From a virus (taxonomy: Duplodnaviria; Heunggongvirae; Uroviricota; Caudoviricetes), in IMG/VR virus record IMGVR_UViG_2713896772_000022: DNA of 9,731 nucleotides; one strand, written 5' to 3'. Below the pieces are notes generated by a model. That model ran no database searches and was not told the origin of the DNA. It saw nothing but the letters and a program-made list of their open reading frames with translations. The position numbers and the translations under genes are program-made. Within the stretch, counting starts at the first letter, position 1. The number at the start of each line of letters is the position of its first letter. Shown one piece after another: positions 1,876-9,731 of this stretch.

Positions 1876-1995
1876 GACTGCTCCGGTAGTGTTTTGTTGT
1901 TGTGTCAATTGTGCCGGGGTCCATACAAGCGCACTACCGAGGAGGATTGTGTCAGTGACTGAACAATGACCTTGTTCTGGCTAGCCAGAGAAAGG

Positions 1996-2013
1996 TGTCA
2001 TGTCTGATCTACA
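1996..2013 (-). promoter_or_regulatory. TGT-N12-ACA Ogr/Delta-type activator box; candidate Psid-like late promoter element
   Basis: TGT(1996-1998)-N12-ACA(2011-2013), ~125 bp upstream of the sid-like ATG. P2 late promoters and P4 Psid/PLL carry this dyad near -55. The -10 element was not confidently placed. Confidence 0.4.
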
Positions 2014-2030
2014 CGCTTCCTTTAATACAT

Positions 2031-2050
2031 ACTATTCACTACTGTTCACT
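2031..2050 (+). repeat. Tandem 10-bp direct repeat ACTATTCACT / ACTGTTCACT (TTCAC iteron-like)
   Basis: Read directly; contains TGTTCACT, one mismatch from the TGTTCACC octamer I recall as the P4 alpha-binding type I iteron. Confidence 0.45.
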
Positions 2051-2114
2051 TCAATAAAAATATAGTAAATACATGTGGTTAAGTGGTGTAGTGTTTTAAT
2101 TAAAGTGATCATCT

Positions 2115-2134
2115 ACTGTTCATGACTGTTCACA
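2115..2134 (+). promoter_or_regulatory. Tandem ACTGTTCATG / ACTGTTCACA repeat that also forms a TGT-N12-ACA box (2117-2134); iteron and/or PLL-like activator site
   Basis: Read directly. A CATATAAG -10-like hexamer lies at 2164-2171, ~45 bp downstream. The site is ~660 bp upstream of the alpA-like ATG, so the promoter assignment is weak. Confidence 0.35.
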
Positions 2135-2210
2135 GAGATAAAATTAAACATATATTTCTTTTTCATATAAGTCGCGATATTTATTTCAGTTTATTACTGG
2201 ATCTTTTCTC

Positions 2211-2789: not shown

Positions 2790-3050
2790 ATGAATAGTAT
2801 TTCCGTTTCCACCCCGGCACCAGCTGCTCCGGTGCTCCCGGTTCCGGCTCAGCAGGAGCGCTTCATACGATTACCTGAAGTGATGCACCTTTGCGGGCTA
2901 TCCCGTTCAACCATCTACGACCTTATCAGCCGCGATGCCTTCCCGCAGCAGATATCCCTGGGTGGAAAAAATGTGGCCTGGGTACAGTCGGAGGTCAGTG
3001 CATGGATGGCGGCGCGAATTGCTGCCCGCGAGCAAGGAGGCCATGCGTGA
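2790..3050 (+). CDS. AlpA/Vis-family phage transcriptional regulator (86 aa)
   Basis: [47 protein letters not shown] has the AlpA-family helix-turn-helix signature (LSRSTIY...FP..LGGR.V.W...E). ATG at 2790 with GAGAGG ~8 nt upstream; stop TGA 3048-3050. Confidence 0.85.
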
Positions 3051-3115: not shown

Positions 3116-3144
3116 TTTCCCGCTGCCGCAAAATCGGCTGCCGG

Positions 3145-3177
3145 GCGTAGGAACCCGAGTTACTTATTGGCGACACC
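3145..3177 (+). promoter_or_regulatory. seqA-like target sequence (GCGTAGGAAC ... TACTTATTGG)
   Basis: Blocks GTAGGAA and CTTATTGG are exactly complementary to TTCCTAC (3321-3327) and CCAATAAG (3306-3313) downstream; the same two blocks recur at 3352-3392. Confidence 0.4.
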
Positions 3178-3178
3178 A

Positions 3179-3200
3179 GACGCGCCGTGCGTCTTTTTTT
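3179..3200 (+). terminator. Hairpin GACGC-GCCGT-GCGTC followed by T7 (terminator-like; possible immunity terminator or RNA structure)
   Basis: 5-bp GC stem at 3179-3183 / 3189-3193 and a run of seven T at 3194-3200, immediately after the seqA-like element. Confidence 0.4.
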
Positions 3201-3239: not shown

Positions 3240-3340
3240 GCTTATACCTTAGCCCCTTTCAGATAATGGTGGTCCGGGCGGGGCAGCCTTCGGGCTGGCC
3301 GGTTTCCAATAAGGCCGGTATTCCTACCCCCGTTCGGGTC
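3240..3340 (+). ncRNA. Candidate CI-like immunity RNA containing a seqB-like segment (3303-3330); boundaries approximate
   Basis: GC-rich untranslated stretch with several short hairpins (e.g. GCC-TTCG-GGC; CCGG...CCGG) and a segment antisense to both seqA-like and seqC-like. No convincing ORF with a ribosome-binding site. Confidence 0.25.
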
Positions 3341-3351
3341 ACCACCCATGA

Positions 3352-4153: not shown

Positions 4154-6487
4154 ATGTCAGGAATGAAAGTCAGTCAGGCCGTGAAGGCTGCCCGCGGTCA
4201 CTGGGCTCAGATTCTGCCAGCGCTGGGCGTGAATATATTGAAAAATCGCCATCAGCCTTGCCCGGTCTGTGGCGGTAAAGATCGTTTTCGCTTCGACGAT
4301 CAGGAAGGACGCGGAACATGGTTCTGCAATCAGTGCGGAGCCGGGGATGGTTTAGCGCTTGTCACCAGGGCACTGAATGTGGATATCAGTGAAGCAGCTG
4401 ACAGGATACATGGACTGACACATGATCTGTCTGTAGTTAATTCCGAGGTCAGGACGTTAACCGCCGATACCGATAGCGGGAAAGATGCAGCGGCAGCACT
4501 TGCCGCGCGACTGCTGCAAGCCTCGCGTGAATCTGCCGGAAACACTTATCTTACACATAAAGGTTTCCCGGAGCATATTTGCCATGAGCTGACTTCAGCT
4601 CATAAGGCCGGTGGTATGATGTTCCGCCCCGGTGATTTGATCGTCCCACTCTATAACGCTGACGGGGAGCTGGTGAATATTCAGCTCATCAGTGGCAATG
4701 GTAGCAAGTGTTTTCTTAAAGGAGGTCAGGTTAAGGAGGCCTATCATCTGATAGAAGGGGGCGGGAGTTCTGTAAGAAGGATTTGGATTGCGGAAGGTTA
4801 CGCCACGGCGCTTACCATTCATTATTTGACAGGAGAAGCCGTCATGGTGGCATTTTCGTCGGTCAACTTTCTTTCTCTGAGCAGCGTTGCCCATAATAAG
4901 TATCCGGGATATCAGTTAATTATTGCAGCGGACCGCGATCTGAATGGTTCAGGCCAGAACAGGGCTGAAACTGCTGCAAAAGCGAGTCAGTGTGACATTG
5001 TGCTGCCACCGGTTTTTGGTGACTGGAATGATGCGCTTACCCAATACGGAGAGGAATCCACCCGGAAGGCAATTCTTGAGGCTTTGAAGCCACATAACGC
5101 CAGTCCTTTCGACACAATGAGTGAAGCAGAATTCACAGCGATGAGTGTCAGCGAAAAAGCTCAGAGGGTTCGGGAGCATTACAGGGATGCACTGGCGGTT
5201 GATCCGAACGGGCAGCTTTTATCCCGCTACGAGTCTGGAGCGTGGAAAGTTATTTCTCAGTCAGATTTTGCCCGAGATGTCGCAGCCCTTTTCCAGCGCC
5301 TCGGGGCACCGTTTTCCTCAGGAAAAATTGCCTCACTGGTGGAAACATTAAAGTTAATTGTTCCGCAGCAGCAAAATCCGTCACGTCATCTGATTGGTTT
5401 TCGTAATGGCGTTCTCGATACGCGAACAGGGCTTTTTAGTCCGCACTGTAAAGAGAACTGGCTGCGTACCCTGTGTGAAGTCGATTTCACGCCACCGGTA
5501 AAGGGGGAAACGCTTGAAACTCATGCCCCGGCATTCTGGCGTTGGCTGGACCGGGCCGCCGGACACAAGCCAGCAAAACGCGACATTATTCTTGCAGCGT
5601 TATTTATGGTGCTGGCGAACCGCTATGACTGGCAGCTCTTTCTGGAAGTGACTGGCCCTGGTGGAAGTGGCAAAAGTATTCTGGCTGAAATTGCGACCAT
5701 GCTTGCTGGAGAGGATAACGCCACCTCTGCGACCATTGAAACGCTGGAGTCCTCGCGAGAACGTGCGGCTCTGATAGGTTTTTCTCTTATTCGCCTGCCT
5801 GATCAGGAGAAGTGGAGCGGCGACGGCGCCGGGCTTAAGGCTATAACTGGTGGCGATGCAGTATCTGTGGACCCCAAATATCAGAATGCTTATTCAACAC
5901 ATATTCCGGCGGTTATCTTGGCCGTAAATAATAATCCTATGCGCTTCACTGATCGCAGTGGTGGTGTGTCCCGCAGGAGAGTTATTCTGCATTTTCCTGA
6001 GCAGATAGCACCGGAAGAACGCGATCCGCAGTTGAAAGATAAAATTGCACGAGAACTGGCTGTGATTGTTCGTCAGCTCATGCAGCGTTTCAGCGATCCG
6101 ATGAGCGCCAGAACATTGCTTCAGTCGCAGCAGAATTCTGATGAGGCTCTCACCATCAAGCGTGATGCTGATCCAGCATTTGATTTTTGTGGCTACCTTG
6201 AGGCATTACCTGACACCAACGGTATGTTTATGGGGAACGCCAATATTGTCCCACGCCAGCCACGTACATACCTTTACCATGCCTACCTCGTATACATGGA
6301 GGCTAATGGCTATAAAAACACCCTGAGTCTTACGATGTTTGGCAAAGGGTTGCCAGTCATGCTGAAGGAGTACGGGCTACATTATGAGAAACGGCGAACT
6401 AATCAGGGAATGCAAACTAACCTCACTTTGAAAGAGGAGAGTAATGCAGACTGGCTGCCCAAGTGTGATGAGCCAATATTAAAATAA
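4154..6487 (+). CDS. alpha: P4 alpha-type bifunctional DNA primase/helicase (777 aa)
   Basis: N-terminal zinc ribbon CPVCGGKDRFRFDD...CNQCG; Toprim-like IAEGYATALT and AADRD; Walker A VTGPGGSGKS of a D5/SF3-type helicase. ATG at 4154 has GAGGGAG 9 nt upstream and gives 777 aa, the length I recall for P4 alpha; the track start at 4103 is an alternative. Confidence 0.92.
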   Translation: MSGMKVSQAVKAARGHWAQILPALGVNILKNRHQPCPVCGGKDRFRFDDQEGRGTWFCNQCGAGDGLALVTRALNVDISEAADRIHGLTHDLSVVNSEVRTLTADTDSGKDAAAALAARLLQASRESAGNTYLTHKGFPEHICHELTSAHKAGGMMFRPGDLIVPLYNADGELVNIQLISGNGSKCFLKGGQVKEAYHLIEGGGSSVRRIWIAEGYATALTIHYLTGEAVMVAFSSVNFLSLSSVAHNKYPGYQLIIAADRDLNGSGQNRAETAAKASQCDIVLPPVFGDWNDALTQYGEESTRKAILEALKPHNASPFDTMSEAEFTAMSVSEKAQRVREHYRDALAVDPNGQLLSRYESGAWKVISQSDFARDVAALFQRLGAPFSSGKIASLVETLKLIVPQQQNPSRHLIGFRNGVLDTRTGLFSPHCKENWLRTLCEVDFTPPVKGETLETHAPAFWRWLDRAAGHKPAKRDIILAALFMVLANRYDWQLFLEVTGPGGSGKSILAEIATMLAGEDNATSATIETLESSRERAALIGFSLIRLPDQEKWSGDGAGLKAITGGDAVSVDPKYQNAYSTHIPAVILAVNNNPMRFTDRSGGVSRRRVILHFPEQIAPEERDPQLKDKIARELAVIVRQLMQRFSDPMSARTLLQSQQNSDEALTIKRDADPAFDFCGYLEALPDTNGMFMGNANIVPRQPRTYLYHAYLVYMEANGYKNTLSLTMFGKGLPVMLKEYGLHYEKRRTNQGMQTNLTLKEESNADWLPKCDEPILK

Positions 6488-6498
6488 CGATTAACTAA

Positions 6499-6523
6499 CC
6501 CGGCTGATGCCGGGCTTCTTATT
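6499..6523 (+). terminator. Rho-independent terminator downstream of the primase
   Basis: Stem CCCGGC (6499-6504) / GCCGGG (6509-6514), loop TGAT, then CTTCTTATT; 12 nt after the primase stop. Confidence 0.5.
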
Positions 6524-6548
6524 GGAAACGCACAAATGTAGAGATAGC

Positions 6549-6575
6549 TGTTCACTCTTCACCTCGCTGTTAACA
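6549..6575 (+). repeat. crr-like iteron cluster: TGTTCAC, TTCACC and the palindrome TGTTAACA
   Basis: Read directly. Further inverted copies at 6610-6617 (GGTGAATA) and 6750-6756 (GTGAACA). The same motif family recurs ~4.4 kb away at 2031-2250. Confidence 0.45.
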
Positions 6576-6837
6576 CGTAAGCAATTGATATATAAGTTAA
6601 AAATGGCAGGGTGAATAGTGTGCATGGTTTTGCGAAAAAAAAGTATTTTTTGTAGAGTCAAGTCCCGGTTTGGATCCGTTTAACGGAACCTAACTAGATT
6701 GACTATTTCTCTGATGATTTTTGGATAAATAATCAACAAAAATCAAAATGTGAACAGAGAATGGTGGGGGCACAAAAAGGGGCATAATTGAATTAATTAT
6801 AATTAAATTTCAATTTTTACAATAGGTTAAATGTGTG

Positions 6838-7392: not shown

Positions 7393-8217
7393 ATGATAAA
7401 GCCATTTTCTGTGAGGTATGGTCATGTTGACGTTAGAGAGCATGTCCAGCTGAATGATCTTAATTCTGATACACGCATGGCATTGTGGAATTGCTTATAT
7501 CTTTTCCTTTGGACTAACAATCGTCAAACTGCTACAGCAACAAAATGTGCGCAGTCTGTGTGGATATATTATCTAAATCAACCTGCGGATAATATTCCTC
7601 GTTATGAAAGTGGATACAAAAGTGATAAGACGTTGCTGACTGCTATCCGAGATTATATATATGGGGAAGCATGGTATTTGGTATATGATTTAATTGAGTT
7701 CATCATTGAGAGAACTAATTCATATATTAATCTATCGAAGCATCTCAATTCCATCTTTAAAAAGCATGGCGTTGGTTATACCATAATAAATGGTTGTATT
7801 ACTCCTATTTCAAATGATAACGAAATTGAAAGTGTTCAGAACGCAGTTGATAATGGCACTGATTCATCGCGTAGCCATTTCGAAAGGGCGTTACAACTAA
7901 TGACGGATAGAGAGCAGCCAGACTACAGAAACTCGATTAAAGAGTCTATCTCTGCAATTGAATCTTTATGCAGGAAAATCACGGGCAATGATAAAGGAAC
8001 CTTGGGGGCTTGTCTTAAAGCTATAGAGGAAAAAGGATATATACACTCTGCAATGAAAGGCGCTTTTAGTCAGCTCTATGGTTATACAAGTGATCAGGGT
8101 GGAATACGTCATGCGCTAACAGAAGAAGATGTAAATCCTACCTTAGCTGAAGCTAAATTTATGTTAGTCACTTGCAGTGCGTTCAGTAATTATCTGTTGT
8201 CAAAAATAAGTGATTAA
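7393..8217 (+). CDS. Hypothetical protein (274 aa), low-GC cargo; function unknown
   Basis: ATG at 7393 with GGGGAAG upstream; long uninterrupted ORF with AT-rich codon usage unlike the satellite core; stop TAA 8215-8217 followed by a strong hairpin. No motif I can assign with confidence. Confidence 0.75.
   Translation: MIKPFSVRYGHVDVREHVQLNDLNSDTRMALWNCLYLFLWTNNRQTATATKCAQSVWIYYLNQPADNIPRYESGYKSDKTLLTAIRDYIYGEAWYLVYDLIEFIIERTNSYINLSKHLNSIFKKHGVGYTIINGCITPISNDNEIESVQNAVDNGTDSSRSHFERALQLMTDREQPDYRNSIKESISAIESLCRKITGNDKGTLGACLKAIEEKGYIHSAMKGAFSQLYGYTSDQGGIRHALTEEDVNPTLAEAKFMLVTCSAFSNYLLSKISD

Positions 8218-8938: not shown

Positions 8939-9731
<793 letters not shown>

Follow-up and report, generated by a model that had tools for sequence, protein, structure and literature searches.

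The 9,731-nucleotide stretch of DNA analyzed here (IMG/VR virus record IMGVR_UViG_2713896772_000022; referred to as the window) is, by its gene content and the family definition given in PMC8628076, a P4-like satellite prophage. The intergenic region between its minus-strand sid-like gene and its plus-strand alpA/vis-like gene is likely a standard P4-type control region, combining a Delta/Ogr-dependent sid promoter (Psid) with an alpha-dependent origin of replication (ori). An initial annotation had pointed to two TGT-N12-ACA dyads in this region, TGTCATGTCTGATCTACA at 1996-2013 and TGTTCATGACTGTTCACA at 2117-2134, as candidate late promoters. Both dyads are present at these positions, and the sid-like gene does appear to have a promoter of this kind. 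However, its likely activator boxes are two other dyads, at 1910-1927 and 1948-1965, which had been missed. The initial annotation was correct on the system and the motif, but the dyads it selected are the two with the weakest claim to be activator sites. In our reading, the two flagged dyads are a chance match and a pair of origin iterons, respectively. This reading draws on the observed geometry, conservation, homology to annotated P4 repeats and fit to the consensus.

TGT-N12-ACA is a recognised element of P2-type late promoters (PMC3931495), as the initial annotation had assumed and as the annotation of the P2 RefSeq record also indicates. The whole window contains six perfect matches versus 2.6 expected, and four of them, all with the complete core dyad, cluster within 1910-2134 (1910-1927, 1948-1965, 1996-2013 and 2117-2134). 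In dinucleotide shuffles of the intergenic region (1876-2789), the expectation is 0.46 against these four dyads (P about 0.0004). With the two sid-proximal boxes left out, 1966-2789 has two dyads versus 0.34 expected (P = 0.046). Once the dyad generated by the iterons is set aside, a single dyad is left against the same expectation of 0.34, and the probability of at least one is about 0.29, which is not above chance.

The predicted sid promoter and its activator boxes

The two sid-proximal dyads are perfect TGT-N12-ACA matches on the minus strand. Their centres are located 43.5 bp (1910-1927) and 81.5 bp (1948-1965) from the sid ATG at 1875, and the offsets in P4 are identical. For the P4 reference (NC_001609, reverse strand; L002), these are the distances from perfect dyads at 2077-2094 and 2115-2132 to the sid ATG at 2042. 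To follow these and the flagged dyads across relatives, we used two sets of loci. The first consists of 19 loci retrieved independently of the boxes: Escherichia coli relatives (eight, at 70-98% identity), P4, and nine loci from other species that came from a Sid-alignment scan of genome contigs (nine species in seven genera; Scandinavium, Pantoea, Citrobacter, Pseudocitrobacter, Enterobacter and Shigella). The second came from a scan of viral contigs with a 14-base Psid pattern, which returned 120 loci; 100 were chance matches, and we retained the 20 that have another box at a distance of 38 bp. Being selected on the two-box feature, these 20 were counted only toward tests of the flagged dyads. 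The pooled set contains 36 distinct loci, 18 with window-type origins and 18 others.

Both Psid boxes are found in 19 of 19 independently retrieved loci. In 18 of these, the distances from the box centres to the ATG are 41.5-44.5 bp and 79.5-82.5 bp; in the remaining locus (L008), an IS3 insertion removes the sid start and only the 38-bp spacing between the boxes can be checked. This spacing is kept in all 36 distinct loci, and the spacer sequences differ between clades. The cores at 1910 and 1948 are thus conserved at fixed positions around a variable spacer (36/36).

The arrangement of the boxes relative to the predicted promoter also agrees with known late promoters. The predicted -10 hexamer, CACAAT (1908-1913, minus strand), reads CAATTGTG on the plus strand, where it is invariant in the alignments, and it overlaps the proximal box. 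It starts 44 bp from the centre of the distal box, which would place that centre near -55.5. In the P2 RefSeq record (L021), the activator site shared by PO and PP is likewise centred at -55.5, and those of PV and PF are centred at about -57 from the annotated start sites. The box at 1948-1965 would therefore have the spacing of a late-promoter activator site, with its centre at about -55 to -58 and a -10 hexamer beginning ~44 bp away. Psid transcription is predicted to start near 1901, which would leave a leader of about 26 nt before the ATG. The Delta footprint reportedly lies at -55 in every late promoter of P2 and P4, with an extra site at -18 in Psid; the proximal box at 1910-1927 would correspond to this -18 type. 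Neither Psid nor PLL, the P4 promoter upstream of vis, has a promoter or start-site feature in the GenBank records of P4.

We trained a 26-position weight matrix on 18 sites that do not belong to the window clade, namely P2 PO, P2 PF, P4 PLL and the Psid boxes of other clades. With this matrix, the 1910 box ranks first (22.4 bits) and the 1948 box second (19.2 bits), and the next best position in the window reaches 4.2 bits. A second matrix, built from Psid boxes only and with the six core bases excluded, provided a non-core score. Genuine sites that are not homologous to Psid score -1.9 (P4 PLL), 3.3 (P2 PO/PP), 7.2 (P2 PF) and 0.3 (a PLL-like site in Pantoea) in this test, and random DNA has a mean of -12.6 with a standard deviation of 6.9. 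An extended consensus was also apparent over 24 sites, with T before TGT (21/24), C before ACA (21/24) and A after ACA (19/24).

Combining these data, we identify 1910-1927 and 1948-1965 as the Delta/Ogr boxes of the predicted sid promoter. Psid would use both, the distal one near -55 and the proximal one near -18, overlapping CACAAT (1913-1908). Either the element's own 90-residue Delta or the Ogr of a helper phage may bind the two boxes and recruit RNA polymerase, and transcription would then proceed leftward from near 1901.

The dyad at 1996-2013

The centre of the first flagged dyad is 129.5 bp from the sid ATG, in line with the distance of about 125 bp given originally. Its conservation is very different from that of the Psid boxes. 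Only six of the 36 distinct loci have it, and their identity to the window is 93% or more: the window itself, two relatives at 98% (L004) and 93% (L005), and three near-identical viral-contig loci (L039, L071 and L083). In the 87% relatives the ACA arm reads TCA (GATCTTCACC), and in L008 and L010 both arms are altered. At this position the 70% relatives, all other genera and P4 have unrelated sequence. The fit to known sites is poor as well. The dyad ranks 395th of 9705 window positions with the weight matrix, its non-core score of -26.6 is about 2 standard deviations below the random mean, and it has G, T and C at the three extended-consensus positions. No correctly spaced and conserved -10 hexamer was found on either side of it, and a leftward start 55 bp away would land inside the distal Psid box. 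The claim that 1996-2013 is an activator site is therefore not borne out by conservation, score or spacing.

Could the dyad instead be a third Delta/Ogr site of Psid? It would then lie near -103 from the Psid start and contribute to cooperative activation of sid in the O26-type sublineage. The perfect core fits this proposal, as does the presence of four dyads in 225 bp, which is far above chance, and the core is kept in the 93% relative despite three nearby changes. However, the 87% relatives have already lost the dyad, and neither P4 nor any other clade has it. It is located 48 bp upstream of the -55 box, about 4.6 helical turns, and thus on the opposite face of the DNA. Given also the low non-core score and the chance probability of about 0.29 for one extra match in 824 bp, we consider a third site unlikely.

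A different possibility is that the dyad serves a rightward Delta-dependent promoter, with a start near 2060, as a displaced equivalent of P4 PLL. Such a promoter would fill a gap, as the window clade has no recognisable Delta box before vis and a late promoter for the plus strand is unaccounted for. But the sole -10 candidate at the right distance, TTCAAT at 2050-2055, is inside iteron cluster 1 and is replaced by TTTTAT or TTTGGT in relatives. The dyad is not conserved, and the core of P4 PLL aligns elsewhere, with 2321-2349 and 2712-2790. A displaced PLL at this position is extremely improbable.

Most likely, 1996-2013 is a recent chance match. It would have arisen in the O26-type sublineage, and it is probably not functional as an activator site. 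A covarying hairpin at 1994-2014 (GTGT/ACAC, and GCCTC/GAGGC in L012) was also considered and rejected as too weak, with stems of 4-5 bp and loops of 8-14 nt. Elsewhere in the window, a perfect TGT-N12-ACA at 9216-9233 overlaps a minus-strand ACTGTTCA and falls inside an IS600 transposase gene in the O26 record. It is the best-scoring dyad outside Psid (matrix rank 13, 2 bits) and is itself most likely a chance match.

Probable origin iterons and the dyad at 2117-2134

The second flagged dyad belongs to an array of repeats. The P4 record places ori between sid and vis, with six type-1 and three type-2 repeats. In a MAFFT alignment of the window, P4, two E. coli relatives and Pantoea, three repeat elements of the window fall on the P4 type-1 repeats. 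Cluster 1 (2031-2049, plus strand; ACTATTCAC, T, ACTGTTCAC in a 10-bp phase) aligns with P4 repeats 1-2 (L002 2212-2229). A degenerate inverted iteron, GGTGTAGT (2085-2092, minus strand), aligns with the inverted type-1 repeat GGTGAACA of P4 (L002 2265-2272), and relatives carry GGTGAA at this position. Cluster 2 (2105-2133, plus strand; GTGATCAT, CTGTTCAT, CTGTTCAC) aligns column for column with P4 repeats 4-6 (L002 2287-2315). A third cluster at 2219-2245 on the plus strand consists of three copies of TATTCACCAG, the last one degenerate (repeat families D1 and D3). The repeat finder groups it in the same family as clusters 1 and 2, and it also reports 2030-2062 and 2114-2146 as a 33-nt direct repeat with an 84-bp offset (families D1 and D2). 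In cluster 3 we observed a copy-number polymorphism of the 10-bp unit, with three copies in the window versus two in L004-L006. A small open reading frame at 2122-2268 spans this polymorphic repeat and was rejected as coding.

The octamers are of the TGTTCAC type, phased 10-11 bp and located between sid and vis, and they are strongly enriched. ACTRTTCA occurs 7 times versus 0.63 expected, four of them at 2031-2132, and TRTTCAY 20 times versus 5.9 expected. Each clade has its own version of the iteron within a constant layout of clusters: P4 has TGTTCACC, the window type TRTTCAC, the Citrobacter/Enterobacter type CTGTTCCACC and Pantoea YTTCACC. Such clade-wise change is the pattern expected of an initiator and its binding site. 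The candidate initiator is the alpha protein, a primase-helicase that is 73% identical to P4 alpha over 772 residues, including the origin-binding C-terminal third. A second cis site is found downstream of its gene. At 6548-6625, CTGTTCAC, TCTTCACC and GGTGAATA parallel one 120-bp unit of P4 crr, with direct and inverted iterons, in a comparison made by eye. This crr-like site sits just after the alpha terminator hairpin (about 6500-6516).

The dyad at 2117-2134 is formed by the last two units of cluster 2. As the initial annotation had noted, it consists of tandem copies of ACTGTTCA, which are located at 2115-2122 and 2125-2132. Any two TGTTCAC units in a 10-bp phase will spell TGT-N12-AC, and the pattern arises for this reason, with only the last base free. 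The homologous iteron pair in P4 reads TGT-N12-ACC. Of the 18 window-type origins, 15 have the final A (2134); L008, L010 and L012 have lost it but retain the iterons. None of the 18 other loci has a perfect dyad here. The dyad is thus restricted to one type of origin, and even there its conservation is confounded, as the whole iteron pair is kept and not only the triplets. The earlier statement that this box is oriented toward the plus-strand operon has no meaning, since the specified bases of the pattern are palindromic.

The A at 2134 may be explained equally well by a different element. A sigma-70-like promoter, TTCACA-N16-TATATT (2129-2156, plus strand; 10/12 consensus positions), has as its -35 the end of the last iteron in cluster 2, and this A completes the conserved -35-like TTCACA (2129-2134). 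Relatives retain this -10 (2151-2156) in the form TATGAT, TATGGT or TATAGT; P4 has none. Promoter-like matches in the region are not above chance (3 found versus 4.3 expected). As a candidate, this promoter would transcribe rightward through cluster 3.

We also considered that 2117-2134 is both an alpha iteron pair and a Delta/Ogr box that drives a rightward late promoter inside the origin. A perfect core in 15 of the 18 window-type origins, across relatives down to about 70% identity, is compatible with such a dual site, and TATAAG at 2166-2171 would place its centre near -53. However, the pattern is forced by the 10-bp phasing, P4 has ACC in place of ACA, and three loci (L008, L010 and L012) keep the iterons without the ACA arm. 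The spacing does not fit either. Relative to the best-conserved -10, TATATT at 2151-2156, the centre is near -37.5. Relative to the hexamer at 2164-2169 (CATATA/CATAAT; CATAAT, CATAGT and CATATA in relatives), which is 38.5 bp away versus 44 bp in Psid and PLL, it is near -50.5, half a turn off. For all four hexamers compared (TATATT, CATATA, TATAAG and GATATT), the spacing misses or only borders the range annotated in P2, so that the dyad appears to lack the -55 to -58 geometry. It has C, C and G at the three positions where the extended consensus (T-TGT...C-ACA-A) has T, C and A, its non-core score is -18.4 and its matrix rank is 113. Downstream of it there is no gene for about 660 bp. A dual site is, on this evidence, very unlikely. 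The related idea that the pair has been kept as a perfect dyad in most window-type origins because Delta/Ogr also binds there is highly doubtful. If it were true, 2117-2134 would be a shared operator for the replication initiator and the late transcription activator, and Delta/Ogr binding at the iterons would couple late-gene activation to the origin, for example through competition with alpha or through transcription across the iterons. Of the suggestion that this DNA is read by both an activator and a replication protein, the replication-type repeats have held up; nothing beyond the core supports its Delta half.

We therefore prefer to read 2117-2134 as the pair of alpha-protein iterons that ends the second ori cluster. 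It is probably not an activator site; the alpha protein would bind the iterons at 2105-2133, including the pair that forms the dyad.

Several points weigh against our overall reading of the region. The weight matrix is dominated by homologous Psid sites and so partly measures homology; it is cross-validated by the non-homologous P2 and P4 sites. Two of the three substitutions near 1996-2013 in the 93% relative fall in the spacer, and changes there would spare the six core bases by chance with a probability of about 0.44, so that the retained core is weak evidence. A perfect dyad in 15 of 18 window-type origins would also be expected of a selected site with a dual function. In mutational work on P2 and P4 promoters, the TGT and ACA triplets account for the larger part of the binding energy, and a perfect core might bind Delta in vitro despite poor flanks. 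Finally, we infer the transcription start, the binding of Delta, the binding of alpha and all promoter positions from sequence.

Gene content and comparison with P4 and P2

Positions 1850-2800 of the window match E. coli O26 chromosomes at 100% identity, and 558 of 5426 complete E. coli genomes contain related sequence. An integrase, psu, delta, sid, alpA and alpha are co-located according to the O26 RefSeq annotation and Pfam. The O26 RefSeq locus comprises genes for an integrase, an ogr/Delta-like zinc finger, a polarity suppression protein, a hypothetical protein at the sid position, a helix-turn-helix regulator, an Icd-like protein, a DUF5375 protein, a primase-helicase and an AbiJ-type protein. 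On the minus strand of the window are delta, psu and sid. The zinc-finger gene at 298-570 encodes a 90-residue Ogr/Delta protein (Pfam PF04606, E = 7e-17), as had been proposed, and provides a cognate activator for the late promoter. It has a single domain, which matches both halves of P4 Delta. The psu-like gene is at 572-1126 (PF07455, E = 1e-35). The sid-like gene at 1123-1875, the first in the late operon, is 23% identical to P4 Sid (E = 2e-6) and has a weak Psu-fold Pfam match; it is syntenic with the other late genes. The plus strand carries, in order, the alpA/vis-like gene (2790-3050; PF05930, E = 4e-20), an RNA region and the alpha primase-helicase gene (4154-6487; assigned by its Pfam domains and its identity to P4 alpha). 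In the RNA region, Rfam matches isrK at 3122-3199 (72 bits) and C4 antisense RNA at 3262-3349 (83 bits), both downstream of vis. By position and blastn, this stretch corresponds to the P4 cI (CI RNA) region, and it is also 76-80% identical to phiKO2-type Klebsiella phages. An Rfam search of 1876-2790 gave no match.

Further downstream, after alpha and the crr-like site, a gene for an AbiJ-NTD4 domain protein is located at 7393-8217, a position where P4-like satellites typically carry anti-phage defence cargo. Copies of IS66, IS600 and IS3 flank the satellite in the O26 genome. Between Psid and ori, a 28-bp near-perfect palindrome at 1969-1996 (ACCTTGTTCTGGCT|AGCCAGAGAAAGGT; inverted repeat I6) has a core, GGCTAGCCAG, that all window-type relatives retain; in the corresponding position of P4 the sequence is GGCAAGCCAG. 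This palindrome is possibly a protein-binding site. A small open reading frame at 2432-2521 (hydrophobic, 29 residues) is frameshifted in the 98% relative L004 and was rejected as coding.

The plus-strand operon differs from that of P4 in its upstream region. In P4, the PLL box (L002 2475-2492; 11.3 bits) is 111.5 bp upstream of the vis ATG, and the Pantoea locus L013 has a Delta box about 110 bp upstream of vis (11.6 bits). By contrast, no such box scoring above about 4 bits was found in the sid-vis intergenic region of the window, L006, L007, L009, L012, L014 or L016. A search for a plus-strand box with one-mismatch patterns, N11 and N13 variants and the matrix gave no convincing candidate. 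TGT-N11-ACA at 2284-2300 was rejected, being at about -64 from the PLL-like core and not conserved. In the window, 2712-2790 aligns with the leader and the -10 region of P4 vis (CATAAT at 2719-2724), and the -35 side of P4 PLL resembles 2321-2349 (TTGCAT-N17-AAAAAT), about 440 bp upstream of vis. At 2321-2349, GTTGCATTT is invariant and TTGCAT-N17-AAAACT is kept in more distant relatives. The PLL homologue thus appears to be split, with about 360 bp of extra AT-rich DNA between the two pieces, and a Delta box at -55 was found for neither of them, whether by pattern search or with the matrix. From this absence, it appears that in the window clade only Psid is Delta-dependent. A palindrome at 2653-2690 (17-nt arms TTTATTTTTTGAGAAAT/ATTTCACACAAAATAAA, 88% complementary) has its centre ~60 bp upstream of the start predicted near vis and could be a regulator site.

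The practical value of these results is a correct annotation of the Delta/Ogr boxes in a widespread P4-like satellite of the E. coli O26/O157 type, in which the flagged repeats belong to ori. The two-box geometry of Psid, with its 38-bp spacing invariant across several genera and its drifting spacers, is a good search signature for P4-like elements. Most clades besides P4 seem to have no Delta box before vis, and late control of the replication operon may differ from the P4 paradigm. Neither the signature nor the absence of this box alters the understanding of these systems.

The model implicit in the initial annotation is the P2 PO/PP region, in which one dyad lies between divergent late promoters, at -55.5 from both starts. 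In P2 this one site serves two starts 111 bp apart, whereas in the window over 650 bp, with the origin among them, separate the plus-strand gene from either flagged dyad. The annotated activator sites of P2 (L021 3063-3080, 10243-10259 and 17561-17578) also differ in sequence, as all deviate from TGT-N12-ACA. The sequence is TGT-N12-CCA in PO/PP and PF and TGT-N11-ACA in PV, so that an exact-pattern search misses all of them, and the five perfect matches in P2 lie elsewhere than the annotated activator sites.

The closest counterpart is P4, to which all these parts correspond: the two-box Psid, the ori of alpha iterons with its crr, vis, and the RNA-based immunity of CI/C4. Its Psid has the same two TGT-N12-ACA boxes, at the same distances from the sid ATG and 38 bp apart, the same -10 CACAAT overlapping the proximal box, and an Ogr/Delta-family activator in the same operon. 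The spacer sequences differ. P4 Delta is a tandem protein of 166 residues, whereas that of the window is a single domain of 90 residues, and the late operon runs sid-psu-delta in the window and sid-delta-psu in P4. From sid to vis, the two origins share one layout: two direct iterons, an AT-rich stretch, one inverted iteron and three direct iterons. Both also have a second iteron site after alpha, with two 120-bp copies of crr in P4 and one copy in the window. The iteron itself is TRTTCAC(N) in the window versus TGTTCACC in P4. The type-2 repeats of P4 (CTTTAAGTGG), similar in reverse complement to the consensus given for the P2 Cox box in PMC3936717, are replaced in the window by the third iteron-like cluster (TATTCACCAG x3), and the sigma-70-like promoter overlapping the last iteron of cluster 2 has no P4 counterpart. 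Upstream of vis, 2712-2790 and 2321-2349 resemble the P4 PLL region, but the Delta box present in P4 and Pantoea L013 is missing in the window and the other clades scanned. These differences (the single-domain Delta, the gene order, the third cluster and the extra DNA before vis) are expected variation within the family.

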